A stretch of DNA of 64,000 nt. Source: a virus. Positions 2,066-48,569 of this stretch are shown one piece after another (the stretch's first letter is position 1; every line of letters begins with the position of its first letter). The notes below the pieces were generated by a model that saw only the letters and a list, made by a program, of their open reading frames with translations, did not search any database and was not told where the DNA came from. A program made the position numbers and the translations under genes. Where the stretch lies: the IMG/VR virus record IMGVR_UViG_3300044645_002359, positions 22,355-86,354 of that record, one strand, 5' to 3'.

Positions 2066-2347
2066 GGTCTAAGGGCAAAGCCCTACCATACGGCTCAAAA
2101 CTGGGTGTAGCTCGGGCAGACGTTGCGGTGGACAAGGGGGCAGTACCCTTTAGCTCCACTTTCCCTTTACGGGGCTAATCTAGTTTCGACACCGTGAAAG
2201 TGTCACTTGAGTGAAAGCCGCTTGCATAAGCACAAAATAGACGCTAACAAAATCGTCAAATTCGAGAGGACTGCCGTAGCCGTTTGAGCTATAGCATTCT
2301 GACTCATTGCGGGGGCTTCGGCCCCCCTTAAACCAATTAGAAACAAA

Positions 2348-2745: not shown

Positions 2746-3096
2746 ATGGAAATCAACCCTAAATTATTGACCTCTTCCGGAAAGAAGAAAGTTAAGAAAA
2801 TCCTAGCAGAGTACAGTCCCCCAAACTATAACAGTCTAAATTGGAGTGACTTCCAAAGGGGGGAAGATTATTACAAGTTCCAATCTGAGTGGAATACCCA
2901 CAAGGTCCTCAGGGAAATTTTTGATGGGTCTGGAATTGAAGAGAATGATGAATACGAAAGCGGTTTTGAAGACCTTAGTTATAATGAAGGAATAATTTAC
3001 ACGAACATTGCCAACATTATAATCAGTTTAAGAAACCAAATTCAAAACACTGAAGAAACCGCCGATGAAGCTATCAGGCGATTGAATAATATCTGA
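2746..3096 (+). CDS. hypothetical protein (116 aa)
   Basis: ORF. Confidence 0.45.
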   Translation: MEINPKLLTSSGKKKVKKILAEYSPPNYNSLNWSDFQRGEDYYKFQSEWNTHKVLREIFDGSGIEENDEYESGFEDLSYNEGIIYTNIANIIISLRNQIQNTEETADEAIRRLNNI

Positions 3097-9248: not shown

Positions 9249-9404
9249 TCCCCCATGGTAAATCTCCCAATAATCGACCCAATAGCAAGGTGATTGTAAC
9301 CCTGAGAGGGCAAAGTGCTATTTGCACCGGGGTTCATAACCCCACAATCACATTCCGGGATTTGTAACCCGGATCTGTACAGACAAAACATAAACAAAAA
9401 AAAA

Positions 9405-10253
9405 ATGAAAATTCGCATTATTGCTACCTCAGCAGCTATCGCTTCACTCGCCACTCCCGCGCTCGCCGCACCTCAATTTTCTGACGCTGCTCGGACAAAT
9501 TGGGCCTATGGCGCTCTTCAAAACCTCGCTGAAAAGTATGGTTGTGTTGCTGGTTATCCCGATGGTACTTTCCGTGGTAGCAATTCCACCACCCGTTACG
9601 AAAGCGTTGCTCTCGTGAGTGCCTGCATTGATCGGGTTTATGACACCCTGAGCCAAGCTGATCGTCGCATTGCAGACGAGGCTCGCATTGCAATCGTAGC
9701 GACTGATGCTCGTGTTTCTGCCCTTGAGAACACAGCAACTCGGAAAGCGGTTGGAGTCGGCAGTTACGTTGGTGCAGGCGTTAACCTGAATCGTCAAGGC
9801 GTTAGCAGCGATGCCTATGGAAACAATCGCACTGTTGTTGGAGCTACCCTTCAGGGACGTTTCCCCCTGGGTAACCTCTACGGAGTTTCCACTTCTGCCC
9901 GCCCCTATGTAAACTTTGCGGCTGGACCAGATAGCCAAATTGGTTCTGCCCTCGGTGTTCTGGGTACCGTTGACGTTTCCTTGGCTGGGCGTACCATTGG
10001 CGGTATCCTCGTTAGCAGCACTAACCTCTACTTCGGTGCCGGTGGCCAATGGGCTTTGACGAATAATGGTCAGGCCAACTATCAAACTAGCGTTGGTCAA
10101 GGTTCTCAGTTTGTATTTGTTGCCGGTGTTGAGCGTTCCTTCACTCCGTCCCTGGTTGGTTTCGCTGATCTGAAGTTCCCGACCCAGGAAAATGGTGTTG
10201 CTGGAACGGCTTACGCCCCAGTTGGCACTATCGGCCTCGGATTTAAGTTCTGA
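9405..10253 (+). CDS. SLH-domain outer-membrane beta-barrel protein (cyanobacterial Som/OprB-like mini-porin)
   Basis: Signal peptide, then the SLH motif FSDAARTNWAYGALQNLAEKYGCVAGYPDGTFRGSNSTTRYESVALV, then a Gly/Ser/Thr-rich region of alternating residues ending in …GLGFKF, the outer-membrane-protein C-terminal Phe. Confidence 0.6.
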   Translation: MKIRIIATSAAIASLATPALAAPQFSDAARTNWAYGALQNLAEKYGCVAGYPDGTFRGSNSTTRYESVALVSACIDRVYDTLSQADRRIADEARIAIVATDARVSALENTATRKAVGVGSYVGAGVNLNRQGVSSDAYGNNRTVVGATLQGRFPLGNLYGVSTSARPYVNFAAGPDSQIGSALGVLGTVDVSLAGRTIGGILVSSTNLYFGAGGQWALTNNGQANYQTSVGQGSQFVFVAGVERSFTPSLVGFADLKFPTQENGVAGTAYAPVGTIGLGFKF

Positions 10254-10766: not shown

Positions 10767-11018
10767 ATGACCATCAGCCAAATAGTTCACGAGCTATCCC
10801 TCGACAAGCTCAAAGAGCTCACTTCAGACTACGAACAGTTCGAGTGCGATGGTTCGATTCCCAACTGTTACCTTCGAAGGATGGCGGAACGGGCTCAACG
10901 AGAGCTGGGCCTGAACTCAGGCTTTCCTGTAATTCTTTGGGTGGAGAAGGTTGCGTTTGAAGCTTACCGTGAACTTTATAAGCGGTTGCAACACTTGCTT
11001 AGCGAAGAGGTCGGTTAA
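10767..11018 (+). CDS. hypothetical protein (83 aa)
   Basis: ORF downstream of the cassette. Confidence 0.4.
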   Translation: MTISQIVHELSLDKLKELTSDYEQFECDGSIPNCYLRRMAERAQRELGLNSGFPVILWVEKVAFEAYRELYKRLQHLLSEEVG

Positions 11019-11085
11019 CCGACCTTTACCTCCATCCTAAACAAGGCTATACTTAATTTAACAAGAAACTACGACGGAGCTGAAA

Positions 11086-12075
11086 ATGATCGCCCTACCC
11101 AACGTCAAGGAAGAAACGGTTATCGAGCCGTTAGTCAAAGAACTGATTCAGGTTACCGTTGAAACAGAAGGCGGTTTGGGTTACGTTCATAGGAAAACTT
11201 TTCAATTCAGTGCAGGAGAGACTCAAGTTCGCCTCAGTCCTTTGCCTACAGGAGTCAGGAAGATTCGAGTTAGGGCGGATATTGAGAGCAGCCAAACTTT
11301 GGTAGAACTTCTTCTGACTTTGGATGCTATTAACAATCTAGAGTACCAAGGTCCTGTCGGATTAACCCTCCCATACCTTCCTTACAGCCGTCAAGACCGC
11401 GCCTGCGCACCTGGCGAGGCTTTTGCCCTTTCTGTTCTTGTAAACTGCCTCGTCCCGTATCTCGGTGCCGACGACACTATCACAACTTGGGATGTTCACA
11501 GCAGTGTGGCACGAACCCTTTTCGATAGTAAATTCCAGGGAGTATTCTATAATGTCTCCGCAGCGAGTCTCTTGCAGAATTTTGAGCTTGAAAAAGATGT
11601 GGTATTCAATCCCTCAACCATTGTCATTGCCCCAGATAAGGGTGCTGTAGACCGGGCCACAGAAGTTCAAAATGTCCTGGGACTAGAACGGACCGTGTAC
11701 GCAACCAAAGTTCGCAATCCGGACGACGGCCAGATCCTAAGAACAGAAGTTCCCGAAGACGTGAATTACCGAGGCAAAAACCTTTTGATTGTAGACGACA
11801 TTTGTGATGGTGGCCGCACTTTCATCGAACTTGCCAAGGTTTTGCGAGAATACGAGCCGTCACGTATTGACCTTTATGTGACACATGGGATCTTCTCAAA
11901 AGGTTTCAAAGTTTTTGAGGGCTTTATTGACAACATCTACGTAGCCAACCTGTTGATGGAACTCATTGAGCACCGCGATGGACGAAAGTCGTTCCCATCA
12001 GGTTCTGACCTCTGTGAAAATGTGGGATGTTATAGAGAATTTCCGAGCAACGTGACTTATCTCCGAAACATTTAA
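11086..12075 (+). CDS. ribose-phosphate pyrophosphokinase (PRPP synthetase)-like; candidate ADPR-PP synthetase (Adps) of an NAD-reconstitution pathway
   Basis: 329 aa; PRPP/PRTase motif NLLIVDDICDGGRTF; Prs-like length; immediately upstream of the NAMPT-like gene. Confidence 0.65.
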   Translation: MIALPNVKEETVIEPLVKELIQVTVETEGGLGYVHRKTFQFSAGETQVRLSPLPTGVRKIRVRADIESSQTLVELLLTLDAINNLEYQGPVGLTLPYLPYSRQDRACAPGEAFALSVLVNCLVPYLGADDTITTWDVHSSVARTLFDSKFQGVFYNVSAASLLQNFELEKDVVFNPSTIVIAPDKGAVDRATEVQNVLGLERTVYATKVRNPDDGQILRTEVPEDVNYRGKNLLIVDDICDGGRTFIELAKVLREYEPSRIDLYVTHGIFSKGFKVFEGFIDNIYVANLLMELIEHRDGRKSFPSGSDLCENVGCYREFPSNVTYLRNI

Positions 12076-12113
12076 CCCTGCTCGACAACCCAAGTCAAAC
12101 CTCTTAACAAACA

Positions 12114-13616
12114 ATGAAACTCTTCGCCCCTAACCTTACAGACTTCTACAAGACGGGTCACTACCGCCAGTACCCTGAAAACACGGAGTTCATCTACTCG
12201 AACATGACCGCACGGTCGGACCGTCTCGCCAAGATGCTCCCCGACTACGACCACAAAGTAGTGGTAGCAGGTATTCTGGGCACAGCAGCTTGGTACCTTC
12301 GCGACCTTTGGAACGATACTTTCTTCAGTCAACCTAAAGACCGAGTACTTGAAAAGTACCGCAGGCGAATGGACTCGGCTCTCGGACCTGGCGCCGTGAG
12401 CACAGCCCACCTGGCCGAACTTCACGACCTCGGTTACCTTCCAATCCGAGTAAAGGCTCTCCCAGAAGGCACCCGTGTCAATCTGCGCGTCCCCTTCCTC
12501 ACGGTGGAGAACACACACCCCGACTTCTATTGGGTGACTAACTACATTGAAACTGCCCTGTCGGCTGAAGTTTGGAAGCATGTCAACAATGCAACCATCG
12601 CCTACGAGTTTCGCCGCCTACTTGACCGATACGCAGATCTAACAGGGACTGACCGGTCTTTTGTTGACTTCCAGGCGCACGACTTTTCCTTCCGAGGAGT
12701 TAGTGGTATTCACGATGCTGCTGCCCACGGGATTGGACACCTGTTCTCCTTCAAGGGTACGGACAACATCCCGGCAATTGACTTCTTGGAAGATTACTAC
12801 AACGTTGAAGGCGAATTTATCGCCGGTGGCGTCCCTGCTACCGAACACAGTGTTATGTGCACCGGGGGCCAAGATACTGAGATTGACACCTACAGGCGTC
12901 TGATTTCTGAAACTTACCCGACTGGTATTGTTAGCATTGTTAGCGACACTTGGGACTACTGGAACGTTCTCACGAACATTGCTGCCCAACTGGAGGAGAC
13001 GATCCTGAATCGCCAACCGGATGCCCTTGGCCTTGCCAAAGTTGTATTCCGCCCTGATAGTGGAGACCCCGAGAGAATCCTTTGCGGCGACCCGGACGCT
13101 GAACCCGGCAGTCCAGCCTTCAAAGGCTCTCTGCAGCTCCTCTGGGACCTCTTCGGAGGCACCGTAAACGAGCAGGGCTTCCGCGTCCTTAACCCTCGCG
13201 TGGGCCTCATCTACGGTGACTCGATCACCCTTCCTAGAGCTCTTTCCATTCTGGAGAACATGCACAGCAACGGATGGGCCAGCGGTAACGTTGTTTTCGG
13301 TGTGGGTTCGTACACTTACCAGTTCCACACTCGCGATACATTCGGCATCGCTTTCAAGACGACTTGGACTCAAATCAACGGTCAACCTGTCGAAGTTATG
13401 AAAGATCCGATTACCGACCGTGGAACTAAGAAGTCGGCCAAAGGGTTGCTTCGTGTTGAAGAAGAGAATGGCGAGTACGTTCTCTACGAGCAACAAAGTC
13501 GAGATGAAGAGAGTCGAGGAGAACTGCGAACCGTATTTATGAATAGCCAGGTCTTCGAAAGACCCGACGAGAGTTTGACGAACATTCGCAGTCGTCTTGT
13601 CTCGCCAAATTCCTAA
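12114..13616 (+). CDS. nicotinamide phosphoribosyltransferase (NAMPT/NadV)-like; candidate Namat
   Basis: 500 aa; the N-terminus NLTDFYKTGHYRQYPENTEFIYSNMTAR matches the NAMPT start (TDSYKVTHYKQYPPNT…); overall NAPRTase-family architecture. Confidence 0.75.
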   Translation: MKLFAPNLTDFYKTGHYRQYPENTEFIYSNMTARSDRLAKMLPDYDHKVVVAGILGTAAWYLRDLWNDTFFSQPKDRVLEKYRRRMDSALGPGAVSTAHLAELHDLGYLPIRVKALPEGTRVNLRVPFLTVENTHPDFYWVTNYIETALSAEVWKHVNNATIAYEFRRLLDRYADLTGTDRSFVDFQAHDFSFRGVSGIHDAAAHGIGHLFSFKGTDNIPAIDFLEDYYNVEGEFIAGGVPATEHSVMCTGGQDTEIDTYRRLISETYPTGIVSIVSDTWDYWNVLTNIAAQLEETILNRQPDALGLAKVVFRPDSGDPERILCGDPDAEPGSPAFKGSLQLLWDLFGGTVNEQGFRVLNPRVGLIYGDSITLPRALSILENMHSNGWASGNVVFGVGSYTYQFHTRDTFGIAFKTTWTQINGQPVEVMKDPITDRGTKKSAKGLLRVEEENGEYVLYEQQSRDEESRGELRTVFMNSQVFERPDESLTNIRSRLVSPNS

Positions 13617-13716: not shown

Positions 13717-14307
13717 ATGGACTACAAGACAATCGCATACAAAAAGACCATTCTGGTCCTCAATTCCACGTATGAACCACTCAATAGTACCTCATGGCGC
13801 AGGGCTAGAGTTCTAGTCTTGAAGGAAAAAGCTCATGTAGTTTCTAGTCGCACAATTCGCCTGAAAAACTACGTGAAGGTCCCCCAAGCCAAAATGGCTG
13901 CTGGAAAGCCTTCTCGCGCTCTCATTTTGAAGAGAGACGGACACACCTGCCAGTACTGTGAGTATTCCGGTCCCAACCTTACAATCGACCACGTAGTTCC
14001 GAAGTCTCGAGGCGGCCAAGACACTTGGCAGAACCTTGTTACTAGCTGCCTAGAATGTAACAACTGCAAGGACAATCGTACCCCAGAAGAATGGGCTATG
14101 GCCCTGAAGAAGGTGTTTGCCAAAGAAACTACGAATGTTTCCCCCTTGCCATTCACCTGGGATAGCTTCCAGGTCGGAATGATGGAGACCAGAGTAAACA
14201 GCCGGGGCACAACCTTAATTGGAAAGCCGAAGGCACCTTACAGCAAGATGTCTGTTACGATTAGCACTGCCGAAGTTGACGAGTGGCGCGAATACGTTTA
14301 CGTGTAA
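13717..14307 (+). CDS. HNH endonuclease
   Basis: CQYCEYSGPNLTIDHVVPKSRGGQDTWQNLVTSCLECNNCK is an HNH motif. Confidence 0.75.
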   Translation: MDYKTIAYKKTILVLNSTYEPLNSTSWRRARVLVLKEKAHVVSSRTIRLKNYVKVPQAKMAAGKPSRALILKRDGHTCQYCEYSGPNLTIDHVVPKSRGGQDTWQNLVTSCLECNNCKDNRTPEEWAMALKKVFAKETTNVSPLPFTWDSFQVGMMETRVNSRGTTLIGKPKAPYSKMSVTISTAEVDEWREYVYV

Positions 14308-18088: not shown

Positions 18089-18496
18089 ATGGAACAAAAT
18101 CTGCGCCACTACCTGATCGACTGGCTTAACGAGTGGGGCTACAATGCCCTGGAAGAGTTGGCCGAATTTGACATCCGCGTTGCTCGCGATGAGCGTTACC
18201 CGAACCTCTTCAACCTGAAGTACGGCAGCGTGATGGCGGACAAGTCGCTGCCGATCGTTCGCGCTTGTCGTGGTGCTGTGGTTGAGCGTGTTGATAACGA
18301 TGGCGACCACTCGCCGTACTACCGCCTGGTAGCGTATGCTTTCGATCGTTTCTTCAACGTCGGCGAAGGTTATTGTCACGAACTAGATTGGTCGCATACC
18401 AAGGTTTATGAGAAGTACGATGGTTGCTTACATGCTGAGACTAAGGTAGAAACCTCAAAAGGTACAAACTATCAAAGAGATTTGCGAGAAGCCTGA
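18089..18496 (+). CDS. T4 Rnl1-like RNA ligase N-extein (motif I KYDG) fused to split-intein IntN; IntN is frameshifted and continues in another frame to about 18718
   Basis: DWLNEWGY…IVRACRGAVVERVD…DRFFNVGEG…KVYEKYDG tracks the T4 RnlA N-terminal region. This is followed by C|LHAETKVET (intein block A), and after a shift of one base by …YKITLENGNTIVLTGNHKVWD (block B, close to the gp41-1 IntN YKITLEDGKEIICSEEHLF). Confidence 0.6.
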   Translation: MEQNLRHYLIDWLNEWGYNALEELAEFDIRVARDERYPNLFNLKYGSVMADKSLPIVRACRGAVVERVDNDGDHSPYYRLVAYAFDRFFNVGEGYCHELDWSHTKVYEKYDGCLHAETKVETSKGTNYQRDLREA

Positions 18497-18688: not shown

Positions 18689-19789
18689 TCAACTTTCTGG
18701 AGAAGAGGAACTAAAGGAGTTTACTTGATACTTGACACTTTCACTAAGCTCATCTAGACTCATGTCCCGAATGTCTCTCTCCCAGATGTATATTACCGTA
18801 AACCCGTATTTCTCCGCAACTCCCTTCTTCTCTATATCCCTCTCCCAAATTTCTTCCACAAGGGTACTACCCCCTCCCGGAAGGTGAATACTGTCCCCAA
18901 ACGAATAGATTTCGGGGTTAGCGTGCCAATAGTCCCCCTGGACCTCTATTAGCACTTTGGTCCCCGTAATCAAAAAGTCAAATTGCCTTCTGGCAACAAA
19001 TCGAGAGAACTGAAATTTCAGACCCGCAAGTTCTAAAGCTTGAGACACCTTTTCTTCAACCTTGTTCATTTTCGTAAAAAACTTACCACTCAAGAAGTCA
19101 TCATTGACTTGCTTCCAGAATTTCCTTGTAAGCTCTCCTCTTCTTTCGGAGTACTCCTGCTTTCTTTCCTCGCCCCACCCCCTTCTCGTTTCCCTGAGTT
19201 TTTCTGCTATTGAACTCATCTTTTCCAAGGAAAAAGAAGCTCTAGTCAGAGAAATTGCCTCCGGGTTGGTAACCCTAAGCTTACCATAGCGCTCAAGATG
19301 AGTTTCGTTTATCTTTTCTTTGACATCTGAAAGTTGGAAAACATTGTCCACCCCGTACTTTGATCTAACTGTTTCATTTCTCTTGTGGTAAAATTCAGTT
19401 CCCTTACAGAGAACATTATTCACTCCGTACTTTTCTTGAGAAACTTTCACCATTTTACTTTTCTTTTGATTTGAACCATTAGCTTCTTTAATTTTTCTTA
19501 CAGGTATCTCAAAGTAGTCCATTAGAAAAGATAGTCTCCTGCCCGGTAATCCAAAAAGCTCTTTGAAGTCCGGGAAGCTGAACCCCTTAATCAGGTACAA
19601 GTGCTTTAGTTTTCTGCCACTCTCTAGTTTCAGCGCCGGGTAGCTAAGCTTCAAGGTGTTAAACCTGTACTCCTTTTCCGATAAACCAGGCCCCTTAAGA
19701 CAGGTTTTCAAATGAATCTTCCTTCCACACTCCTTAAGACAAACAAAGCAAACCAAACTCTTAACTAGAACCCCCATGAAAATCTCCAA
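18689..19789 (-). CDS. free-standing homing endonuclease (Vsr/DUF559-like PD-(D/E)xK C-terminal domain, repeated KYGVxNV N-terminal modules)
   Basis: The only − strand gene; C-terminal VLIEVQGDYWHANPE…ERDIEKK…GFTVIYIWERDI resembles a Vsr-like endonuclease domain; it sits between the IntN and IntC halves. Confidence 0.6.
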   Translation of the reverse strand: MEIFMGVLVKSLVCFVCLKECGRKIHLKTCLKGPGLSEKEYRFNTLKLSYPALKLESGRKLKHLYLIKGFSFPDFKELFGLPGRRLSFLMDYFEIPVRKIKEANGSNQKKSKMVKVSQEKYGVNNVLCKGTEFYHKRNETVRSKYGVDNVFQLSDVKEKINETHLERYGKLRVTNPEAISLTRASFSLEKMSSIAEKLRETRRGWGEERKQEYSERRGELTRKFWKQVNDDFLSGKFFTKMNKVEEKVSQALELAGLKFQFSRFVARRQFDFLITGTKVLIEVQGDYWHANPEIYSFGDSIHLPGGGSTLVEEIWERDIEKKGVAEKYGFTVIYIWERDIRDMSLDELSESVKYQVNSFSSSSPES

Positions 19790-20654
19790 AATAGAAAAGA
19801 TAGAAAGTGACTCCCACCTATATGATATACAAACTTTTACCCGTAACTTCTACGCTGAGGGGGTATTGGTACACAATAGCTTAATCAAGCTCTTCAACTA
19901 CAACGGGGACTGGATTGTTTCGACGTCCGGATCGGTGGCAGCAGCTTCGGAAGTTGGTTCCACTGGGCGTTCTTTTGAGGAACTGTTCTGGCTTGTCTTT
20001 GACGAAGTTGGTTATTCTCGGGAATGGCTCGATGAGGGTCTGTGCTATATCTTCGAACTGTGCCACCGCGATAACCGCATCGTTGTGGATTATGCAGAGC
20101 CTCAGTTACCGCTGCTGGCTGTGCGCGACCGTTCCAACGATTTCGAAGAGCTTGAACTTGTTTCGTTCTGCAACCTGTTCGGGTTCAAAGCTGCCAAGTC
20201 GTATGACCTGGGGAGCATGGAAGGCTTGATGGCAGTCGTGAACGATCGTGGCGCCGACCACGAAGGGTTTATCCTGTTTGACGGTGTTGGTCGTGCGAAA
20301 GCAAAGTCCGATGTGTACTGCCAAATGCACCGTGTTCGCGGAAACGGCGATCCGGACTTCTCCGAGCTTTTTCTGAACGACGATTTGGAAGAATTCCTAC
20401 TGCACTTCCCTGAGTACCGTGAGGGCTTCGACGTTCACCTGCGTTCCATCGACATAATGGAAGTTGCTGTGGAAGAGATCATGGGGGTTTACAACCACTT
20501 GAATCAGAAGGACTTTGCTCAAGTTGTAATTGCTAAGGAGAGGGAACTGTCGGGGGCTTGTTTTGCGATTCGCTCCGGTAAAGTTGGCTCCTTCGGTCAG
20601 TGGCTGGAAGGCTTGTCTCCGAAGAAGCTGGATGCCCTGCTGGGTATCAACTGA
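19776..20654 (+). CDS. split-intein IntC (…FYAEGVLVHN|S) fused to the RNA ligase 1 C-extein
   Basis: MKISKIEKIESDSHLYDIQTFTRNFYAEGVLVHNS gives intein blocks F and G with a +1 Ser. The extein SLIKLFNYNGDWIVSTSGS…EGFILFDGVGRAKAKSDVY matches T4 Rnl1 DGSLVST…KSKGS and motifs IV and V EGYVAV…KIKSDWY. Confidence 0.65.
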   Translation: MKISKIEKIESDSHLYDIQTFTRNFYAEGVLVHNSLIKLFNYNGDWIVSTSGSVAAASEVGSTGRSFEELFWLVFDEVGYSREWLDEGLCYIFELCHRDNRIVVDYAEPQLPLLAVRDRSNDFEELELVSFCNLFGFKAAKSYDLGSMEGLMAVVNDRGADHEGFILFDGVGRAKAKSDVYCQMHRVRGNGDPDFSELFLNDDLEEFLLHFPEYREGFDVHLRSIDIMEVAVEEIMGVYNHLNQKDFAQVVIAKERELSGACFAIRSGKVGSFGQWLEGLSPKKLDALLGIN

Positions 20655-21571: not shown

Positions 21572-22045
21572 ATGGCAAAGTCTCAACATTATATCAATGC
21601 CCATGGTGAAGAAATTGACTTCACAGTTCAAGTGGCTACTCGTCCGAACCTTCGAGACAGTATTTCATACATGTTTCAATACCGTGGAATGAACATCCTT
21701 GAGCAGATGTTTGACAAGTGCGAAGTGGATCTCACCGTAGAAAAATTTGACCTTGAGTACCCCGAGCGATGGGCAAACTTGCTAGAGCTAAGAGCCATCC
21801 CTGAGAGAATGATGGTATGTTTTCCCAATCTAAAGACGGTATTCATTCAAACCCACTCTGTTTACCTTATTCAGAGCGTACATAATGGTCACGTATTTAT
21901 TGAGAAATTAATGGATGAAGAAGGTAACGAGGTGATCTACGATGAGGGAGACCCCAAAGATTTGACAAAACGCTATTGCCCACTTAATCGTGAGTTCAAG
22001 GGAATGTTCGTAGCCACTCCCAGTTCGATTCAACATATCCTTTAA
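21572..22045 (+). CDS. hypothetical protein (157 aa)
   Basis: ORF. Confidence 0.45.
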   Translation: MAKSQHYINAHGEEIDFTVQVATRPNLRDSISYMFQYRGMNILEQMFDKCEVDLTVEKFDLEYPERWANLLELRAIPERMMVCFPNLKTVFIQTHSVYLIQSVHNGHVFIEKLMDEEGNEVIYDEGDPKDLTKRYCPLNREFKGMFVATPSSIQHIL

Positions 22046-22405
22046 ATGGCCGAAATCAAAGTAGTCAACAAGTACCACATCGGCGGGAGGCCGATGAAGC
22101 CCCCGGAAGGAGTCATTCGTGCAGCAGTTTACCGCAGCACACCTTTAGGCAACCCTTTCAAAATGGTTAACTCTTCTATTGAGGAGAGGAACAGGGTGTG
22201 CGACGCTTACGAACAATGGTTACCAGCTAAGCTCCTGCAAGATGGAGCTGAGTTAGCCCAGTTCAACGAACTACTGAAACTAGCTCAAACACCGGGGTGC
22301 GAGGCACTAGAACTAATCTGCCATTGCGCCCCAAAACGTTGCCACGGAGACACCATTAAACGCTTACTCGAAACAGAACTTCAAAATGAAATTACCTTTG
22401 ACTAA
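22046..22405 (+). CDS. DUF4326-like protein
   Basis: GNPFKM…RVCDAYEQWL…CHCAPKRCHGD matches the DUF4326 pattern GNPF…Y..WL…C.C.P..CHGD. Confidence 0.45.
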   Translation: MAEIKVVNKYHIGGRPMKPPEGVIRAAVYRSTPLGNPFKMVNSSIEERNRVCDAYEQWLPAKLLQDGAELAQFNELLKLAQTPGCEALELICHCAPKRCHGDTIKRLLETELQNEITFD

Positions 22406-22625
22406 CGTCCTGTCAGAACTCTCTACTGAAGACAAGAATCTTTACACGGCACTTTTGAGTGTCGTCACAGTTGTAATTCTGCTCCTGCTGGGAATGACCT
22501 CTTGTGCTATCACGGAAAGTCGAGAGCGGATTAATAGAACAATCCTAGATTGCAGAAGTACAGCTGTTAATAGAGTCGAGTCAACAGATACACTCGACTT
22601 GATTTGTGGGAAACTGCCTCAGTGA
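22386..22625 (+). CDS. small membrane protein (79 aa)
   Basis: Transmembrane segment LLSVVTVVILLLLGMTSCAI. Confidence 0.35.
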   Translation: MKLPLTNVLSELSTEDKNLYTALLSVVTVVILLLLGMTSCAITESRERINRTILDCRSTAVNRVESTDTLDLICGKLPQ

Positions 22626-23362
22626 CACACTCCCGATATGCCATTATCGGAGACGTTCACTCTCAAGCATTCCCCTTGAAGAATGCCCTAGACTACTGTT
22701 ACGATAACAACTTAACTCCAATTATTCTTGGCGACCTTTTTGATTCGCAGTGTCAGGTTTCAGAGTCAGTTTCTGTTTACAACCTTGTAAGAAAGTCTCA
22801 GGGCGATCTTGGAGCGATTGTACTTCGCTCGAACCACCAGCACCTCCTTGAGAAACTTATCAAAAAAGAAGAGGTTTCCCTTAAAAAAGACTTGTGTAAA
22901 ACAGTCAGAGAGTTTCAAGAGGCAGGAATTTGTCTAACTGAGGTAGGGCAGTGGCTTGAAACTTTCCCTTACGTTTTCGCCTTCCGAGACTCTCGAGGAC
23001 AAGAGTACAGAGTCGCTCACGCGGAAATTCCTGCTTCAGTAAAGGTACCGAACTTCGATCAAACCTGGATGTATCTTCACCCCACGGAACAAGAGCTGCG
23101 ATGCCTGCTTTGGGGCGCCGATTACTCCCTGCCCAACCGTGACCGGTTCTGGTGGCTCGGGAAGCCCGAGAGGGACTGGGTAGCCGTCGCGGGCCATTAC
23201 CACAAGGTTGTCAACGATGGCCGCTCTCTCGTCCTCGACGCTGGGTGTGGAGGGAAGACCCGCGCCTGGTACGACAAGCGTCCCCCTGCGTTACTTCTCT
23301 ACGACGTTGAGGTCCAAAGCCTGATTGAATTCCCGGCTTTTGATAACTCGGTCGTAGGGTAA
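22622..23362 (+). CDS. metallophosphoesterase, PPP/ApaH-like (paralog 1)
   Basis: YAIIGDVHSQ…ILGDLFDS…LRSNHQHLL are PPP-family motifs; GTGA-coupled GTG start inferred. Confidence 0.6.
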   Translation: MTHSRYAIIGDVHSQAFPLKNALDYCYDNNLTPIILGDLFDSQCQVSESVSVYNLVRKSQGDLGAIVLRSNHQHLLEKLIKKEEVSLKKDLCKTVREFQEAGICLTEVGQWLETFPYVFAFRDSRGQEYRVAHAEIPASVKVPNFDQTWMYLHPTEQELRCLLWGADYSLPNRDRFWWLGKPERDWVAVAGHYHKVVNDGRSLVLDAGCGGKTRAWYDKRPPALLLYDVEVQSLIEFPAFDNSVVG

Positions 23363-23381
23363 GTTTCATCAGCGCAACTTC

Positions 23382-24032
23382 TTGATAATGAATCCTGGGT
23401 CAATCTCCGAAAGCACTCGCGAACTTGTATTTGACTTTACTCGGTGCGTCAAAGCCGACGGGAGCTTTTATGGTACGTCAGGTAAGTGCCGAAAAGGCTC
23501 CGAAGTTGATGCCAAGGAAAAACCCTATAAAGTAGGAGTAACTTGGGGCAAGTACAATATTCCAACCCCAGGCCACGCTCGCGTTGTCAAGAACCTGCTC
23601 AAGAAATCTCAGGTTGTGAACGTGATTATGAGCGGAGCGAAGACCAACGTCGACTGGAACTTGCGAAATCTAATGTTTCGCCGAGTGCTCAAGCAACAAG
23701 GGGTGGACGTTTCTCGTGTGAAATTCGTTCACGCCTCAAATACCTTTGAAGCTCTGACAAAGATCATTGATTCTCAAGGTTCGAAAAATGTTCTCCTTGC
23801 ACTTGGCGAAGATCGTAAGAACTACCTAGATGGACTGACCAAAAAGTTAGGGATCGGAGGGCAGTTAATCCCTCGTGCCGCTGGGTCGGAAAGTTCAACT
23901 ATGATGCGTGGGTTGATTGACTCCAAGGACTTCAAAAAGTTAGGAGAAATATACGGCAATGATCCTTATTTGGTGAAACTGGCTAGAATTATCCGGAACG
24001 AAGAGACGAAGAGGGACGGTAAACCGAACTGA
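23382..24032 (+). CDS. NMN/NaMN adenylyltransferase-like nucleotidyltransferase with the N-terminal DFTRCV…GKC module
   Basis: N-terminus LVFDFTRCVKADGSFYGTSGKCRKG is the shared module; then GKYNIPTPGHARVV (an HxGH-type motif) with cytidylyltransferase-fold similarity; paralog of 47873. Confidence 0.5.
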   Translation: MIMNPGSISESTRELVFDFTRCVKADGSFYGTSGKCRKGSEVDAKEKPYKVGVTWGKYNIPTPGHARVVKNLLKKSQVVNVIMSGAKTNVDWNLRNLMFRRVLKQQGVDVSRVKFVHASNTFEALTKIIDSQGSKNVLLALGEDRKNYLDGLTKKLGIGGQLIPRAAGSESSTMMRGLIDSKDFKKLGEIYGNDPYLVKLARIIRNEETKRDGKPN

Positions 24033-26426: not shown

Positions 26427-26461
26427 TATTGCATGAACATGACACGAGCCTAATCTACAAA

Positions 26462-27586
26462 ATGGCAAACATCGAACGCAAACTTGCATCTGTCCGCAAA
26501 GTAACGGACATTCGCCCCATCCCCGACGCTGACGCCATCGAATGCGCCATTGTAGGTGGTGGTTGGCCCGTGGTAGTGAAAAAGGGAGAATTTCAGGTTG
26601 GCGACCTCGCCATCTACTTCGAGATTGATTCCTGGATTCCTCACGAACTTGCCCCATTCCTCTCCAAGGGGAAGAAACCAAGGGAGTATAATGGAGTGAA
26701 GGGGGAGAGGCTGAAAACTGTCAGGCTCCGTGGTCAAGTCTCCCAGGGTCTCCTGCTCCGCTTCTCGGACATCTCTCCAAGCTTCTACGTTGTCTCGCTA
26801 GCCGAACCTTACGGGGGGAGGGAATTTCTCCGAGTTGATCAGTGCGTGTGGGAGGAAGGTGAGGACTTCACTCTAGAGTTCGGAATTCAGAAATGGGAAG
26901 CTCCTGTCCCAGCTTGCTTGGCTGGTCAAGTTCGCGGGAACTTTCCTAGCTTCCTCGTGAAGACGGACCAGGAACGTTGTCAGAATGTTGTGGAGGAAAT
27001 CTTTGAGCGCCATAAGGGTGAAACCTACGAAGTTACTATCAAACTTGATGGGTCTTCCTGCACGGTCTACGTCAAGGACGGGGAAGTTGGGGTGTGCAGC
27101 CGTAACCTTGACCTCAAGGAAACCGAAGGCAATAGTTTCTGGAAGGCTGCTAGGGATCAGGGCATTATCGATGCTATGCTTGCATACAATGGGAAGACTG
27201 GTCACAGTATTGCCTTGCAGTCGGAAACCCTTGGAGAAGGCATCCAGGGCAACCAGGAAGGAATCAAGGGACAACGCCTATTCCTGTTTGACATCTTCGA
27301 TATCGACAGCCAAACTTACATGAAGCCAGGGGCCAGAATGAACCTCTTGGACAAGTACCTAGTTCCATTAGGCGCTGATTTAACCCATACCCCTGTCCTA
27401 CACCCCGCAATGTGTGTAACTGATAGTTCCGCCAACCTTGATGAGCTACTAGCGTACGCCGATGGCCCGTCCATGAACCCCAAAGTCAAACGCGAAGGCT
27501 TAGTATTCAAGTCCAATGACTCTGAGTTTTCCTTCAAGGCCATTAGTAATGAATGGCTCTTATCCAAGGGAAAGAAGGGTGGCTGA
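26462..27586 (+). CDS. ATP-dependent RNA ligase (KxDG nucleotidyltransferase with an N-terminal OB-like extension; DraRnl/Rnl5-like)
   Basis: Motif I IKLDGSS, motif IV EGLVFK, motif V FKAISNEWLLSKGKK; an N-terminal domain of about 170 aa precedes the nucleotidyltransferase. Confidence 0.65.
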   Translation: MANIERKLASVRKVTDIRPIPDADAIECAIVGGGWPVVVKKGEFQVGDLAIYFEIDSWIPHELAPFLSKGKKPREYNGVKGERLKTVRLRGQVSQGLLLRFSDISPSFYVVSLAEPYGGREFLRVDQCVWEEGEDFTLEFGIQKWEAPVPACLAGQVRGNFPSFLVKTDQERCQNVVEEIFERHKGETYEVTIKLDGSSCTVYVKDGEVGVCSRNLDLKETEGNSFWKAARDQGIIDAMLAYNGKTGHSIALQSETLGEGIQGNQEGIKGQRLFLFDIFDIDSQTYMKPGARMNLLDKYLVPLGADLTHTPVLHPAMCVTDSSANLDELLAYADGPSMNPKVKREGLVFKSNDSEFSFKAISNEWLLSKGKKGG

Positions 27587-34270: not shown

Positions 34271-35764
34271 ATGACAACCTTTTTGAACGCACTCGAAAAC
34301 GAATTCAATACTACGACCACAGCCAACGGCGCAAAAGCCTATAAGTCCACAGGTTCCAAGAACCTGGACCTTTTCGGGAAGATTGCAGCCTGCCGCAACG
34401 ACGTTAGCGAAGCAACTCGCCTATTCAACCTTGCTTATGCTGAAGACCCTGAGACCGCAACCAGAATCCTGTTCTGGGCACGTGACATTCGCGGTGGCCA
34501 GGGTGAGCGTAAGATCTTCCGAGAAGTTTTCAAGGAGCTGGTTCGCAATGATGCTACAATCGGCGCGAAACTCATTAGTTTGATCCCGCAGTATGGACGC
34601 TGGGATGATGTGGTAGCCCTTGAAGGCACCCTAGTTTGGAATGTTGCACTCGAGGCAATCAAGGCACAGCTGAACGCTGACTTGAACACCGAAGTTGGAA
34701 ACTCCGTGTCATTGCTTGCGAAATGGCTCCCTTCCATTAACGCCTCTAGCAAGGAGTCTAAGAGGATTGGCCGCAAGATTGCCGAGGCAATGGGTTGGAA
34801 TGAGCGTCAATATCGCAAGGCTTTGACTGCTCTTAGGACACAAATCAAAATTGTCGAACAGGCAATGTGTGCCCGTGAGTGGGATGCCATTGATTATAGC
34901 AAGTTGCCTTCTCGTGCAGGCTTCATGTATCGGAAAGCTTTCGCAAATCGTGATGGCGACCGTTACCAGTCCTACCTGGATGCAGTTAAAAAAGGTGAAG
35001 CAAAGATCAATGCCGGTACTTTGTATCCGTATGACATCGTTGAGAAGTGTCTCTACAACCAAGAATCCAATGATACTCTAGAAGTAATGTGGAAAGCCCT
35101 GCCGAACTTCATGGAGGGCAAGGAATTGAATGGGCTTGTTGTTGCCGATGTTAGCCGTTCTATGTCAGGCCGTCCAATGGCAGTATCCATCTCTCTGGCG
35201 ATGTATATCGCAGAGCGTAATACCGGCATCTGGAAGGACAAGTTCCTAACATTCTCAGGGAATCCTTCTCTACAGACTGTGACTGGCAGTAGCCTTTCAA
35301 ACAAGGTTCGCAACCTTAGCCGAGCAGATTGGGGCGGTAACACTGATATTCAGAAGACGTTTGACCTTATTCTGGATACTGCAGTTCGGAACAACATTCC
35401 AGAGTCAGACATGCCCCGCAAACTGATTATTGTCTCAGACATGCAGTTTGATAACTGTGTTATCATGGGAGGTAATTACTCCGGTCGTATGAGTTATGGC
35501 GGAGCCCGAGTCACCAACTACGAAGCAATCCGCATCAAGTACGCTCAAGCTGGCTACAGCTTGCCCGAAGTTATCTTCTGGAATGTCGATTCCTCAGATA
35601 ACGTCCCGATGAAGGCACATGATTCCGGTACCGCTCTCGTTAGCGGTTGCTCTCCGTCAATCCTGACCGCAGTTCTTACCAGAAACGCAATCACCCCATT
35701 GTCCCTAATGAGAGATGCTGTTTATACTGAAAGGTATGACGCTGTGGGTGCGGTCTTTAACTGA
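34271..35764 (+). CDS. DUF2828 family protein with a C-terminal von Willebrand A domain with a metal-ion-dependent adhesion site (vWA/MIDAS) (Ro60/TROVE-like domain order)
   Basis: N-terminus LNALENEFNTTTTANGAKAYKSTGSKNLDLFGKIAACR…LFWARDIRGGQGERKIFR fits the DUF2828 signature; C-terminal VADVSRSMSG is a MIDAS DxSxS motif. Confidence 0.6.
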   Translation: MTTFLNALENEFNTTTTANGAKAYKSTGSKNLDLFGKIAACRNDVSEATRLFNLAYAEDPETATRILFWARDIRGGQGERKIFREVFKELVRNDATIGAKLISLIPQYGRWDDVVALEGTLVWNVALEAIKAQLNADLNTEVGNSVSLLAKWLPSINASSKESKRIGRKIAEAMGWNERQYRKALTALRTQIKIVEQAMCAREWDAIDYSKLPSRAGFMYRKAFANRDGDRYQSYLDAVKKGEAKINAGTLYPYDIVEKCLYNQESNDTLEVMWKALPNFMEGKELNGLVVADVSRSMSGRPMAVSISLAMYIAERNTGIWKDKFLTFSGNPSLQTVTGSSLSNKVRNLSRADWGGNTDIQKTFDLILDTAVRNNIPESDMPRKLIIVSDMQFDNCVIMGGNYSGRMSYGGARVTNYEAIRIKYAQAGYSLPEVIFWNVDSSDNVPMKAHDSGTALVSGCSPSILTAVLTRNAITPLSLMRDAVYTERYDAVGAVFN

Positions 35765-36048: not shown

Positions 36049-36166
36049 TGGGGAATGGTGCAATGGCAGCACACGTAATTAACGGTTACCTTGGATAAGG
36101 TACAGACAGCAATTACAAAAATTCCATTCCACGGACGTGACGGAGGTTCGATTCCTTCTTCCCCAT
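36049..36166 (+). ncRNA. tRNA-like RNA with a non-canonical insert of about 85 nt (acceptor TGGGGAA/TTCCCCA; D arm GTGC…GCAC; T arm GGAGGttcgattCCTTC)
   Basis: Canonical 7-bp acceptor, D and T arms, but no standard anticodon stem; the insert carries a TACCTTggatAAGGTA hairpin and a CAGACAGCAATTA motif. Confidence 0.4.
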
Positions 36167-37255: not shown

Positions 37256-37373
37256 GGGACCGTAGCTCAACTGGTAGAGCGCTAAATAAAAGTTATCTTG
37301 TACAAGATACGTCAGCAATTAAAAAATACCTCGTTTAAAGGAGTGGTTGCAGGTTCGAGTCCTGCCGGTCCCA
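37256..37373 (+). ncRNA. tRNA-like RNA with a 46-nt insert (acceptor GGGACCG/CGGTCCC; D arm GCTCAACTGGTAGAGC; T arm GCAGGttcgagtCCTGC)
   Basis: Textbook tRNA 5' half and T arm; between them is a palindromic hairpin ATCTTgtacAAGAT plus ACGTCAGCAATTA; no well-paired anticodon stem. Confidence 0.45.
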
Positions 37374-43435: not shown

Positions 43436-43480
43436 GAGAGAGTTTACCTCTTCTCAGTCAACGCTAGACTAAATGTGAAT

Positions 43481-43552
43481 GCCCTGGTAGCTCAGTGGAA
43501 GAGCAGCGACCTTCTAAGTCGTCGGTCGGGGGTTCGAATCCCTCTCAGGGTG
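43481..43552 (+). tRNA. tRNA-Arg (anticodon UCU)
   Basis: Cloverleaf: D arm GCTCagtggaaGAGC; anticodon stem GCGAC/GTCGT with loop CTTCTAA; T arm GGGGGttcgaatCCCTC; acceptor has two G-U pairs. Confidence 0.6.
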
Positions 43553-43592
43553 TCGGTTGCTTTCGCAACCCTATCAAACAACAACATATCAA

Positions 43593-43745: not shown

Positions 43746-43797
43746 TTCACTTGTCAGGGTTGGCCTAAACGTGAACAACCCTGACGTTTCAACTCAT

Positions 43798-43887
43798 GGG
43801 CGTGTGGTGTACGGTAGCACAGGGTCCCTTATGAAGACCACTCCGGCAGATTACCGGCTAGTTAGGGTTCGACTCCCTACGCGCCTA
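43798..43887 (+). tRNA. type-II-like tRNA (long variable arm CCGGcagattaCCGG; anticodon loop CTTATGA, identity ambiguous)
   Basis: Acceptor GGGCGTG/CGCGCCT; T arm TAGGGttcgactCCCTA; weak anticodon stem. Confidence 0.4.
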
Positions 43888-43971
43888 TTTGATTTTGGGT
43901 AATAATGACCATGCTTTGTAACCAAAGCATTAACAACCTGCATTAGCAATCTACGCTAACAACGACAAAAA

Positions 43972-45487: not shown

Positions 45488-45549
45488 TAGCAGCAGTTTC
45501 GAAAACTGCAGAGGGTTAAACCTCCGGGGGTTCAAATCCCTCCTCTTCC
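45465..45549 (+). tRNA. tRNA-Ser (anticodon CGA), type II
   Basis: Acceptor GGAAGAG/CTCTTCC; D stem GCTG/TAGC; anticodon stem GCAGT/ACTGC with loop TTCGAAA; variable arm AGAGGGttaaaCCTCC; T arm GGGGGttcaaatCCCTC; overlaps the last 8 codons of the upstream CDS. Confidence 0.7.
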
Positions 45550-45588
45550 GTTTACGGTTTTTTCCGATGAATAATAATAAGTTCAGCG

Positions 45589-48394: not shown

Positions 48395-48569
48395 GAACTA
48401 CCCTGGGCTTAAGGTCAGTGCTCGCTGGCCTTGGGAAGAACAAACCTTTCAGGAAATTGCCTGGGTGGTTCAAGACTACGTGAACAACAGTGGGGACGTA
48501 ATCAACGAGGATCCGCTGCAAGAGTGGATTGAAGAGTACAACTTTTTCCGGTTTGAAGTTGAAAAGTAA
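48348..48569 (+). CDS. hypothetical protein (73 aa)
   Basis: Overlapping ORF. Confidence 0.35.
   Translation: MKSSEKLKEKLRTLLKNYPGLKVSARWPWEEQTFQEIAWVVQDYVNNSGDVINEDPLQEWIEEYNFFRFEVEK

Follow-up and report, generated by a model that had tools for sequence, protein, structure and literature searches.

NAD+ reconstitution pathway 1 (NARP1) consists of a Prs-like enzyme (Adps) and a NAMPT-like enzyme (Namat) and is already known in ~4% of sequenced phages. Its activity and counter-defence function have been reported for homologs from SPbetaL1, Bas63, FADO, ICP1, the mycobacteriophage DyoEdafos, and Paenibacillus foliorum. Namat adjoins 97% of Adps-clade genes (Osterman et al.). [quoted passage not shown] Namat is recognised by an arginine of the SCL loop that stacks on adenine, whose place can be taken by Lys or Tyr together with the following residue, and by an aromatic selectivity clamp, where the NAMPT-mimicking mutations F392G/Y396K reduce the activity of SPbetaL1 Namat. 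The repressor NrtR, which is de-repressed by ADPR, controls a regulon with an extra prs paralog that was unexplained in 2008, and the link of this paralog to NARP1 has already been suggested in the literature. In this work, we describe a gene pair that is very likely the NARP1 module of a large uncultivated phage, probably a cyanophage.

Organisation of the locus

The window is the whole 64-kb stretch of DNA that was analysed. Its ORFs include two co-oriented genes on the + strand that are separated by a 38-bp spacer, with the Prs-like gene first. The first-pass annotation had placed a full-length Prs homolog directly 5' of a full-length NAMPT homolog, and both ORFs were recovered with exactly the same coordinates. 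JGI and PGAP-style naming labels these genes 'ribose-phosphate pyrophosphokinase' and 'nicotinamide/nicotinate phosphoribosyltransferase'. The features of the locus are as follows.

11009..11024, + strand: perfect 16-nt palindrome GGTCGGTTAACCGACC, found by sequence inspection; overlaps the stop codon of an upstream 83-aa ORF
11025..11053, + strand: weak sigma-70-like promoter candidate TTTACC-17-TATACT, 9/12 matches; sigma-70 may not be the promoter type of the host
11076..11079, + strand: Shine-Dalgarno-like GGAG, found by sequence inspection, 6 nt 5' of the ATG of the Prs-like gene
11086..12075, + strand: adps-like gene, 329 aa, ATG start, PRPS-fold; predicted ADP-ribose pyrophosphate synthetase
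12114..13616, + strand: namat-like gene, 500 aa, ATG start, NAMPT-fold; predicted nicotinamide ADP-ribose transferase
13717..14307, + strand: free-standing HNH endonuclease gene (PF01844, 54.8 bits), directly 3' of the pair

The palindrome is a weak candidate for the point where the upstream transcription unit ends, and it is absent from the terminator-scan output because it has no T-run. The region holds four sigma-70-like sites against a shuffled mean of 2.8, which is not above expectation. The HNH endonuclease gene also adjoins the pair in three related metagenomic phages and is probably a mobile element, not a component of the pathway. No Macro (Adpp) or RyR-domain gene was detected beside the pair in the window, and the locus thus has the plain two-gene form of NARP1. 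The PADLOC search returned no match. The family matches of both proteins have E-values of 1e-36 to 1e-184, far beyond chance.

The Prs-like protein

The Prs-like protein passes only one of the Prs models, the broad subfamily model for ribose-phosphate diphosphokinase (TIGR01251), and does so marginally (125 bits, cut-off 113). All equivalog-level Prs models were missed, for example NF002095 (115 bits, cut-off 296). The protein also matches Pfam PF00156 and PF13793, and PHROG 619 at 233 bits.

Its PP loop, DDICDGGRTFIE (D237-D238-I239-C240-D241-G242-G243-R-T-F246), is of the Adps type. Adps of Felixounavirus, the genus that includes Bas63, has the identical loop, ICP1 Adps has DDICDG in common with it, and the motif is invariant as DDICDGG.TF in 50 relatives. 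The PP loop of E. coli Prs differs (DDMIDTGGTLCK), and SPbetaL1 and FADO Adps carry another loop (DDLSSFGGTF). K208 corresponds to the catalytic beta-hairpin lysine of ICP1 (K185), and R102, H138, D184, D237, and D238 are conserved, where the ICP1 acceptor residues are R87, H121, D161, D212, and D213. All six are kept in PRPS too and thus denote competence, not specificity. Of the two adenine contacts in ICP1, F18 corresponds to F41, where E. coli Prs also has Phe, and Phe92 corresponds to Cys107. The latter position, occupied by M in Felix and by S in SPbetaL1, is therefore not conserved among validated Adps.

The AF2 model (pLDDT 89.4) ends at the strand 323-328 with no alpha11-alpha12 helices after it. 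The TIGR01251 match likewise stops at profile position 273 of 309, and the sequence terminates just past FPSNVTYLRNI, which is aligned with LPNVRTLTLS of E. coli. The N-terminal ~20 aa are poorly modelled and a disordered insertion of ~30 aa precedes the last strand. Foldseek comparison of the model with PRPS structures gave TM-scores of 0.6-0.73.

Pairwise comparison is ambiguous for this protein: Felix and ICP1 Adps score 116 and 102 bits, canonical and archaeal PRPS 69-81 bits, and the Adps of SPbetaL1 and FADO 54-57 bits. Trees and HMMs were therefore needed. Phylogenies of both proteins, which had been proposed as a check in the first-pass annotation, were constructed as simple NJ trees, not maximum likelihood trees. 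Canonical PRPS were represented by the enzymes of E. coli, B. subtilis, and human and by two from archaea. Bootstrap support for the split between canonical PRPS and the Adps-like proteins, with the window protein among the latter, was 95/100 and 194/200. The validated phage Adps group together without the window family, so that the phylogenetic bracketing is incomplete on the Prs side. The protein scored 145.5 bits with the validated-Adps HMM and 68.6 bits with the canonical PRPS HMM, and the archaeal PRPS controls exhibited the opposite order. These results place the protein on the Adps side of the family, and it is predicted from its sequence and model to convert ADPR and ATP to ADPR-PP and AMP.

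The NAMPT-like protein

The family models that match the NAMPT-like protein are NF006629 (537 bits, cut-off 405), PF04095 (134 bits), and PHROG 448 (616 bits). The Namat selectivity clamp was found at G398-S-Y-T-Y-Q-F-H-T-R-D408, where the aromatic residues Y400 and F404 correspond to F392 and Y396 of SPbetaL1. Mammalian NAMPT and the NARP2-type Nampt of nt-1, Riv-10, and RBC57 carry GG[GA]LLQ..xRD in place of the clamp. The SCL stacking arginine R37 is aligned with R40 of SPbetaL1. At phi3 of the SCH motif, an atypical His stands in place of the usual Asn or Val. The catalytic core in common with Nampt is kept (D10, Y12, F191, R194, D217, H245, R313, D315, and R407 in T406-R407-D408; D13, Y15, F189, R192, D215, the catalytic His, R306, D308, and R399 in SPbetaL1). 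The Namat-clade protein in PDB 9ke8 has Q and R at the two clamp positions, and a search of the literature for its identity returned nothing.

The following comparisons place this protein with Namat. It scored 499 bits to PDB 9w5x, whose sequence is 100% identical to SPbetaL1 Namat, and 214 bits to mammalian NAMPT. The blastp score was 466 bits to SPbetaL1 Namat (46% identity) against 189-205 bits to nt-1 and mammalian NAMPT, and the HMM scores were 591 bits for validated Namat against 286 bits for Nampt. The NJ tree split Nampt from Namat in 100/100 and 200/200 bootstraps with the window protein on the Namat side. The tblastn spectrum among phages exhibits a break between ~37% and ~32% identity. 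The protein thus belongs to the Namat clade, and the predicted reaction is ADPR-PP and nicotinamide to NAD+ and PPi.

Five NAMPT homologs of ~810 aa were considered as Adps-Namat fusions and rejected. Their insertion of ~310 aa splits RPD|SGDP exactly and has Cys as its first residue, Asn as its last, and Ser directly after it, which identifies it as an intein.

Two distant nucleotidyltransferase genes

The first-pass annotation had also listed two NMNAT-like genes. Both ORFs exist, and their assignment holds at the level of the nucleotidyltransferase superfamily, below the NMNAT cut-offs.

23382-24032: HIGH-superfamily nucleotidyltransferase paralog, 10 kb from the pair
47873-48394: HIGH-superfamily nucleotidyltransferase paralog, 34 kb from the pair

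Both are divergent and carry the HxGH and SxTxxR signatures of HIGH-superfamily nucleotidyltransferases. No cut-off of the curated models was reached (best TIGR00125, 23.3 bits against 27.7), and the NMNAT models gave E-values of only 0.03-0.1. The best query-normalised TM-score of the AF2 model (pLDDT 91) was 0.70 to Francisella NadM, and the fold matches are evenly distributed among PPAT, NadD, and NMNAT, with E ~1e-4. One distant homolog is named NMNAT by JGI. The DARPin/ankyrin matches in the PDB profile search with the nucleotidyltransferase alignment are spurious and come from a short GHxEIVxxLLKxG motif. The hhalign comparison with the Acinetobacter 'NadM' gave no match, which is expected since that protein is NrtR. 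Both paralogs sit in conserved kinase-metallophosphoesterase-exonuclease/RNA-ligase neighbourhoods, and their genomic setting is that of nucleic-acid end-healing modules, not of NAD genes. No Nudix box was found within the 64-kb window.

Phage context and bacterial relatives

The phage context of the pair is indicated by PHROG matches, tRNAs, and the one-strand gene layout. Identical or near-identical proteins are found on metagenomic contigs of up to 201 kb with unchanged gene order, and the order of the Prs-like gene followed by the NAMPT-like gene is kept in the three related metagenomic phages that also have the HNH gene. Many of the top homologs of one protein come from contigs equal in length to those of the other. 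The phage collection searched at the DNA level contained no close relative. The source is a large uncultivated phage (~200 kb), probably a cyanophage.

The closest cellular relatives of the pair are prs-nadV operons next to nrtR (59% identity for NadV/Namat and 37% for Prs2/Adps). Among the matches from the phage collection, the best was Acinetobacter phage MD-2021a, at 59% identity. It was considered as a classical prs-nadV-nadM locus and rejected, as this contig belongs to a bacterial chromosome and its 'NadM/Nudix' gene encodes NrtR. The DDICDGG and clamp signatures in the gamma-proteobacterial NrtR-controlled prs-nadV operons are in keeping with the second, ADPR-induced prs paralog that was puzzling in 2008.

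Function of the gene pair

The proposal of Adps and Namat in the first-pass annotation is borne out at the sequence level by the motifs, clades, HMMs, C-terminal loss, and adjacency. In family and sub-clade, in the specificity determinants described in the literature, and in its conserved adjacency, the window pair matches NARP1; the enzymatic activities and the counter-defence role, which have been demonstrated for homologs only, would apply to it by analogy. A host defence effector (TIR, SIR2, or SEFIR-type) would split NAD+ into ADP-ribose and nicotinamide. ADPR-PP would then be formed by Adps, with ATP donating its beta,gamma-pyrophosphate to the terminal ribose of ADPR. Namat would swap the pyrophosphate of ADPR-PP for nicotinamide and yield NAD+ directly, with no NMN and no NMNAT. 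The pair is a further example of the already described NARP1, and no biology beyond the known system is indicated.

Classical nicotinamide salvage, in which the Prs-like protein makes PRPP from ribose-5-phosphate, the NAMPT-like protein makes NMN from PRPP and nicotinamide, and the phage 'NMNAT-like' ORFs complete NAD+, had been the alternative in the first-pass annotation and would resemble NARP2. Host NadD, NadM, or NadR could also take the last step. We regard this reading as very unlikely. Both proteins do contain generic Prs and NAPRTase/NAMPT domains, and Namat-type enzymes still turn PRPP and nicotinamide into NMN in vitro. However, the NAMPT-like protein does not belong with the KVP40/NARP2 type. 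It has no GG.LLQ and is set apart from NARP2 and mammalian Nampt in 200/200 bootstraps, and the Prs-like protein has neither the PRPS C-terminal module nor the canonical PP loop. The signatures of the two small ORFs, the TM-score of 0.70 to Francisella NadM, and the homolog named NMNAT favour salvage, but these ORFs are below all curated cut-offs, their fold matches are not NMNAT-specific, they lie 10 and 34 kb off among end-healing genes, and the window has no Nudix box. The 'NadM' beside the closest bacterial homolog, being NrtR, also speaks against salvage. The same ORFs bear on a dual route, which we consider very unlikely, where NARP1 would operate when ADPR is present, and residual PRPP-dependent Nampt activity, with NMN completed by host or phage nucleotidyltransferases, would protect against defences that leave no usable ADPR, such as aRES. 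There is a slight chance that one or both paralogs adenylylate NMN, perhaps forming a split NadR-like unit together with the neighbouring P-loop kinase, which would give such a hybrid of NARP1 and a PRPP- or NR-based route; if true, the hybrid would be effective as well where NARP1 by itself is defeated, as by aRES. Namat enzymes retain roughly half of the activity of human Nampt on PRPP in vitro, PRPP-based NARP2 works against aRES, where NARP1 on its own fails, and the phage encodes two HIGH-superfamily nucleotidyltransferases. Nevertheless, no phage in the survey of Osterman et al. had both NARP1 and NARP2, the nucleotidyltransferases are linked to end-healing genes instead of NAD genes, the pair has no Macro (Adpp) or RyR accessory gene beside it, and Adps-clade enzymes are not known to make PRPP.

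It is also conceivable, though improbable, that the same chemistry serves another role. The pair would then be an auxiliary metabolic module, related to NrtR-controlled prs-nadV and not dedicated to counter-defence, that recycles ADPR and nicotinamide to sustain NAD+ in infection (e.g. for NAD+-consuming phage or host enzymes). The closest cellular homologs are indeed chromosomal prs-nadV-nrtR operons, not prophage genes, and a housekeeping function of bacterial NARP1 has been raised by Osterman et al. and Lan et al. However, NARP1 deletion or addition altered the sensitivity to NAD+-depleting defences in all phages tested to date, and did not raise NAD+ in cells free of such defences. With this assignment, the known range of NARP1 grows by a lineage of uncultivated freshwater phages of 190-280 kb, whose hosts are probably cyanobacteria, and immunity that depletes NAD+ would count among the relevant selective pressures in those hosts. 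For annotation, the DDICDGG PP loop together with the GS-aromatic-T-Y-Q-aromatic-x-TRD clamp sets the pair apart from true Prs and Nampt.

Comparison with known systems

The NARP1 loci of Bacillus phages SPbetaL1 and FADO, E. coli phage Bas63 (Felixounavirus), and Vibrio phage ICP1 also consist of adjacent co-oriented genes with the Prs-like gene first. The window pair has in common with them the Namat clamp and SCL arginine, the catalytic lysine, the absence of C-terminal PRPS helices, the same clades in both trees, and, for the Felixounavirus type, an identical Adps PP loop. Identity to these references is 42-46% for Namat and 25-34% for Adps. The window pair differs from them in the N-terminal stretch and disordered insertion of Adps, the SCH phi3 His, the Cys at the position of ICP1 F92, and the host, which is probably a cyanobacterium. 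NARP1-AP (with the Macro-domain phosphatase Adpp) and RyDEP-extended NARP1 have the core of Adps and Namat in common with the window pair, whereas no Macro or RyR-domain gene was detected next to this pair in the window.

The prs-nadV(-nrtR) operons of Acinetobacter, Shewanella, and others are now regarded as chromosomal NARP1. They have the same gene order as the phage pair, the DDICDGG PP loop, and the GS[FY]TY..TRD clamp. These operons have the ADPR-responsive repressor NrtR adjacent, which is absent from the phage locus, whereas the phage pair lies among phage genes with the HNH endonuclease gene next to it.

NARP2 (KVP40-type Nampt and bifunctional Nmnat/Nudix) has the NAMPT fold, the catalytic core, and NAD+ as the end product, as in the window. 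However, its Nampt has GG.LLQ instead of the aromatic clamp, prefers PRPP, and is only 28-32% identical to the window protein, and the pathway requires Nmnat and lacks a Prs-like enzyme. Canonical class I PRPP synthetase and NAMPT/NadV have the same overall folds as the window proteins (205-214 bits to mammalian NAMPT). The window pair differs from canonical Prs in the missed equivalog models, the remodelled PP loop, and the loss of the C-terminal helices, and from canonical NAMPT in the presence of the Namat clamp.

The gene pair and its locus

The first-pass annotation had reported a Prs-like gene and a NAMPT-like gene side by side. Both open reading frames (ORFs) were recovered at exactly those coordinates, on the same strand, with the Prs-like ORF first and a spacer of 38 bp.

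11009-24: perfect palindrome upstream of the Prs-like gene
11025-11053: weak sigma-70-like site upstream of the Prs-like gene
11086-12075, plus strand: Prs-like ORF (329 aa), with GGAG 6 nt 5' of its ATG
12114-13616, plus strand: NAMPT-like ORF (500 aa)

The Prs-like ORF was assigned to the ribose-phosphate diphosphokinase family by its matches to TIGR01251 (125 bits, cut-off 113), PF00156, PF13793, and PHROG 619 (233 bits). The NAMPT-like ORF was assigned to the NAMPT/NAPRTase family by its matches to NF006629 (537 bits, cut-off 405), PF04095, and PHROG 448 (616 bits). No terminator-like site was found between the two genes. Downstream, the conserved neighbour encodes a free-standing HNH endonuclease, and neither flank of the pair has a Macro (Adpp, NARP1-AP) or RyR-domain (RyDEP) gene. 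The predicted NARP1 module is of the plain two-gene form.

The window genes are nearly all on one strand, many of them match PHROGs, and tRNA genes are present. Metagenomic contigs of up to 201 kb encode proteins identical or 97% identical to the pair, and contigs of 189-282 kb encode relatives; the local gene order is conserved. This places the window in a large uncultivated phage, for which no close relative at the DNA level was found in the phage collection.

NARP1 consists of Adps, which converts ADPR and ATP to ADPR-PP, and Namat, which converts ADPR-PP and nicotinamide to NAD+ (Osterman et al.). It has been reported that the Adps clade is apart from cellular Prs, that the Namat clade is apart from the Nmnat-associated Nampt of NARP2, and that 97% of Adps-clade genes adjoin Namat. 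NARP1 occurred in 4.3% of phages, and the two pathways were never carried by one phage (Osterman et al.).

Comparison of the NAMPT-like protein with Namat and Nampt

The structure of SPbetaL1 Namat has revealed a selectivity clamp of two parts (Lan et al., PMC12774641). The first part is the helix motif GS-X-phi1-X-phi2-X-phi3-TRD, where the aromatics at positions 3 and 7 (F392 and Y396) stack on the adenine of ADPR-PP. The second part is R40, which lies in a loop. When the clamp is mutated, NAD+ synthesis is lost and PRPP-dependent NMN synthesis is retained (PMC12774641).

The NAMPT-like protein is a Namat, with its activity predicted from homology and signature residues. In the multiple alignment its clamp motif is GV-GSYTYQFHTRD, and R37, Y400, and F404 correspond to R40, F392, and Y396 of SPbetaL1. 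The validated Namats (SPbetaL1, FADO, a member of Felixounavirus, to which Bas63 belongs, and ICP1) exhibit GS[FY]TYQY.TRD, whereas the NARP2-type Nampts (nt-1, Riv-10, and Caulobacter phage RBC57) and mammalian NAMPT exhibit GG[GA]LLQ...RD. Its catalytic core is preserved (D10, Y12, F191, R194, D217, H245, R313, D315, and T406-R407-D408).

The PDB entries 9w5x/9w5w score 499 bits against the window protein and mammalian NAMPT 214 bits; 9w5x matches, at 100% identity, the product of the SPbetaL1 gene that adjoins SPbetaL1 Adps. The identity to SPbetaL1 Namat is 46% (466 bits), compared to 28-32% (144-205 bits) for Nampts. The phage matches (2,028 records) exhibit a gap between ~37% identity (NARP1-type) and ~32% (T4-like, NARP2-type). 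The HMM of four validated Namats scores 591 bits and that of four Nampts 286 bits. Phylogenetic placement of both proteins had been proposed in the first-pass annotation. In the neighbour-joining (NJ) trees, Nampt and Namat are split in 100/100 and 200/200 bootstraps and the window protein groups with Namat; the node that unites the validated Namats also includes its family.

PDB 9ke8/9keo (495 aa, named 'nicotinamide phosphoribosyltransferase') groups with the SPbetaL1 and FADO Namats, but Gln and Arg replace the two aromatics of the clamp (GAQTYQRNTRD), which would make it a useful test case for the clamp rule. The record of ICP1 isolate 2018_Mat_004 (Vibrio phage; L002) exhibits an in-frame stop at ~3060-3075, near the Namat N-terminus (…THV*SNFT…), and a shorter CDS with start 3133 is annotated. 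A sequencing error, a pseudogene, or a truncated Namat could each account for this.

The homologs P0016, P0033, P0035, P0036, and P0110 are ~810-aa proteins with a ~310-aa intein exactly within the catalytic RPD|SGDP; the intein starts with Cys, ends in ...SGN, and is followed by Ser. The Namat genes of Felixounavirus and Pectobacterium phage CB7 also carry insertions or an HNH gene. Given these inteins and insertions, namat appears prone to invasion by selfish elements.

Comparison of the Prs-like protein with Adps and PRPS

The structure of ICP1 Adps has defined three family signatures: a PP loop that has been remodelled (C215-S220, following D212-D213-I214), a lysine in the hairpin (K185), and the absence of helices alpha11-alpha12 at the C-terminus (Liu et al., PMC13586617).

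The Prs-like protein is Adps-like, and its putative activity likewise follows from homology and signature residues. Its PP loop, DDICDGGRTFIE, is identical to that of Felixounavirus Adps. The window protein and ICP1 Adps have DDICDG in common, where E. coli Prs has DDMIDTGGTLCK, and DDICDGG.TF is invariant among 50 relatives. K208 (K185 in ICP1), H138, D184, and R102 are conserved. Cys107 replaces the ICP1 adenine contact F92, at a position that is variable among validated Adps too. The sequence ends just past FPSNVTYLRNI, which is aligned with E. coli LPNVRTLTLS; PRPS continues beyond this point into filament and regulatory helices, whereas the window protein stops there. In its AlphaFold2 model (pLDDT 89.4) the C-terminal helices are absent and the chain stops after the last beta-strand (323-328). 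The extra length of the 329 aa is accounted for by an N-terminus that is poorly modelled and by a disordered insertion (290-320).

In pairwise comparison, Felixounavirus Adps scores 116 bits, ICP1 Adps 102, the PRPS of E. coli and archaea 69-81, and the Adps of SPbetaL1 and FADO 54-57; alone these scores are ambiguous because validated Adps are strongly divergent among themselves. The validated-Adps HMM scores 145.5 bits and the canonical-PRPS HMM 68.6 bits, and archaeal PRPS controls exhibit the opposite preference. The protein is far below all equivalog-level Prs models. The canonical controls of the tree were human PRPS1 and B. subtilis Prs (sequences 100% identical to PDB 8dbc and 1dkr), E. 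coli Prs, and two archaeal fragments. The protein is placed apart from canonical PRPS, on the Adps-like side, in 95/100 and 194/200 NJ bootstraps. In these trees the validated phage Adps form a subgroup that does not include the window family.

Classical salvage and the two nucleotidyltransferase ORFs

The first-pass annotation had also considered classical salvage, in which Prs and NadV feed an NMNAT. The best match in the phage collection (L001, 59% identity) appears to favour this, as its prsA_2 and NAMPT homolog lie beside a gene annotated as bifunctional NMN adenylyltransferase/ADP-ribose pyrophosphatase. However, that third gene is the ADPR-responsive repressor NrtR (NF050029, 471 bits, cut-off 400), not an NMNAT. 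The record, titled 'Acinetobacter phage MD-2021a', is an Acinetobacter chromosomal contig with transporters, regulators, and metabolic genes (CAKLQF020000015.1). In a second bacterial relative, nrtR adjoins prs-nadV as well. It has been reported that NrtR is released from the prs-nadV operator specifically by ADPR, and that the dedicated second prs paralog was unexpected and unexplained (Rodionov et al., PMC2330246). The proteins of these bacterial relatives exhibit the DDICDGG loop and the aromatic clamp of the window pair, and the chromosomal NARP1 of Paenibacillus foliorum has been shown to be active. With its NrtR neighbour, the release by ADPR, the shared loop and clamp, and the active P. 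foliorum pathway, the bacterial sister group supports an ADPR-based pathway and does not contradict it. Acinetobacter NadV was reportedly characterised as a Nampt, with PRPP only; such an assay would not discriminate because Namat retains PRPP-dependent Nampt activity. Classical salvage is very unlikely on the evidence of the 64 kb covered.

The two NMNAT-like genes that the pair was proposed to feed do exist as ORFs.

22604-23362: second metallophosphoesterase, directly 5' of ORF 23382
23382-24032 and 47873-48394, plus strand: HIGH-superfamily nucleotidyltransferase paralogs (HxGH and SxTxxR motifs)
48646-49107: AAA_33 P-loop kinase, 3' of ORF 47873
to 49825: metallophosphoesterase, after the kinase
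49861-50757: 5'-3' exonuclease, after the metallophosphoesterase

The paralogs share 33% identity (E = 5e-30). Neither reaches the curated cut-offs (PF01467, 18.7 bits vs 21; TIGR00125, 23.3 vs 27.7), and NMNAT models match them at E = 0.03-0.1. The fold model (pLDDT 91) matches PPAT, NadD, archaeal NMNAT, and NadM about equally (E ~1e-4, 11-18% identity), with the highest TMq for NadM (0.70). No Nudix box was found within the 64-kb window of the ~200-kb genome. The order nucleotidyltransferase, kinase, metallophosphoesterase, exonuclease is kept in distant phages (L016-L018), and ORF 23382 is flanked by an Rnl1-like gene and an Rnl2-like RNA ligase gene. Given these neighbours, both genes are part of nucleic-acid end-healing neighbourhoods, which lie 10 and 34 kb from the NAD pair. 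The regions 47873-50757 and 21572-24032 resemble a Pnkp-like module for end healing that includes an uncharacterised nucleotidyltransferase. No specific support for NMNAT function was found in the 64 of ~200 kb covered.

Other features of the window and the host

2103-2287, plus strand: permuted two-piece tmRNA (Rfam RF04321, 73 bits, gathering score 47)
9315-10253, plus strand: SLH-domain protein gene, two genes upstream of the NARP1 pair
18089-18496 and 19776-20654: T4 Rnl1-like RNA ligase, apparently split in two ORFs
18689-19789, minus strand: 366-aa ORF between the Rnl1-like halves
26429-27586: Rnl2-type RNA ligase
34271-35764, plus strand: 497-aa protein with DUF2828, DUF7788, and weak vWA (PHROG 850 'RNA-binding protein', 508 bits)
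36049-36166 and 37256-37373, plus strand: two 118-nt tRNA-like genes (Rfam only, no ARAGORN call)
43480-43554, 43797-43888, and 45465-45551: tRNA-Arg(TCT), tRNA-Ile(TAT), and tRNA-Ser(CGA) (ARAGORN)
52638-52688, plus strand: glutamine riboswitch aptamer (RF01739, 41.3 bits, gathering score 35)

Phage-encoded permuted tmRNAs are unusual; permuted tmRNAs are known in cyanobacteria and alpha- and beta-proteobacteria. ARAGORN calls the tmRNA at 2069-2378 with the tag peptide ANKIVKFERTAVAV. Glutamine riboswitches of this family typically occur in cyanobacteria and marine cyanophages. The homolog of the SLH protein in a related metagenomic phage (L014, 3406-4941) is a 511-aa SLH and OprB porin, the architecture of cyanobacterial outer-membrane porins; the window gene may have an auxiliary or superinfection-related role. 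From their general occurrence, the tmRNA, the riboswitch, and the SLH/OprB-type porin gene point to cyanobacterial hosts for this phage lineage.

The 118-nt tRNA-like genes may be intron-containing or otherwise atypical. A 70-bp match to Listeria phages (43481-43550) corresponds simply to the tRNA-Arg gene. At the start of 19776-20654, the C-terminal splicing motif of inteins is matched below threshold, and the Rnl1-like split could be an interruption by an intein or another mobile element. The product of 34271-35764, whose gene lies among tRNA-like and RNA-repair genes, may be a Ro/TROVE-like RNA-binding factor.

Comparison with known NARP1 systems

The clamp, the PP loop, the missing C-terminal helices, the NJ splits, and the HMM scores agree with the first-pass reading of the pair as NARP1 (Adps plus Namat). 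On homology and signature residues, the locus is very probably a NARP1 module by mechanism. NARP1 has already been described and structurally dissected and is common; the findings in this work add a probable new member in a further phage lineage.
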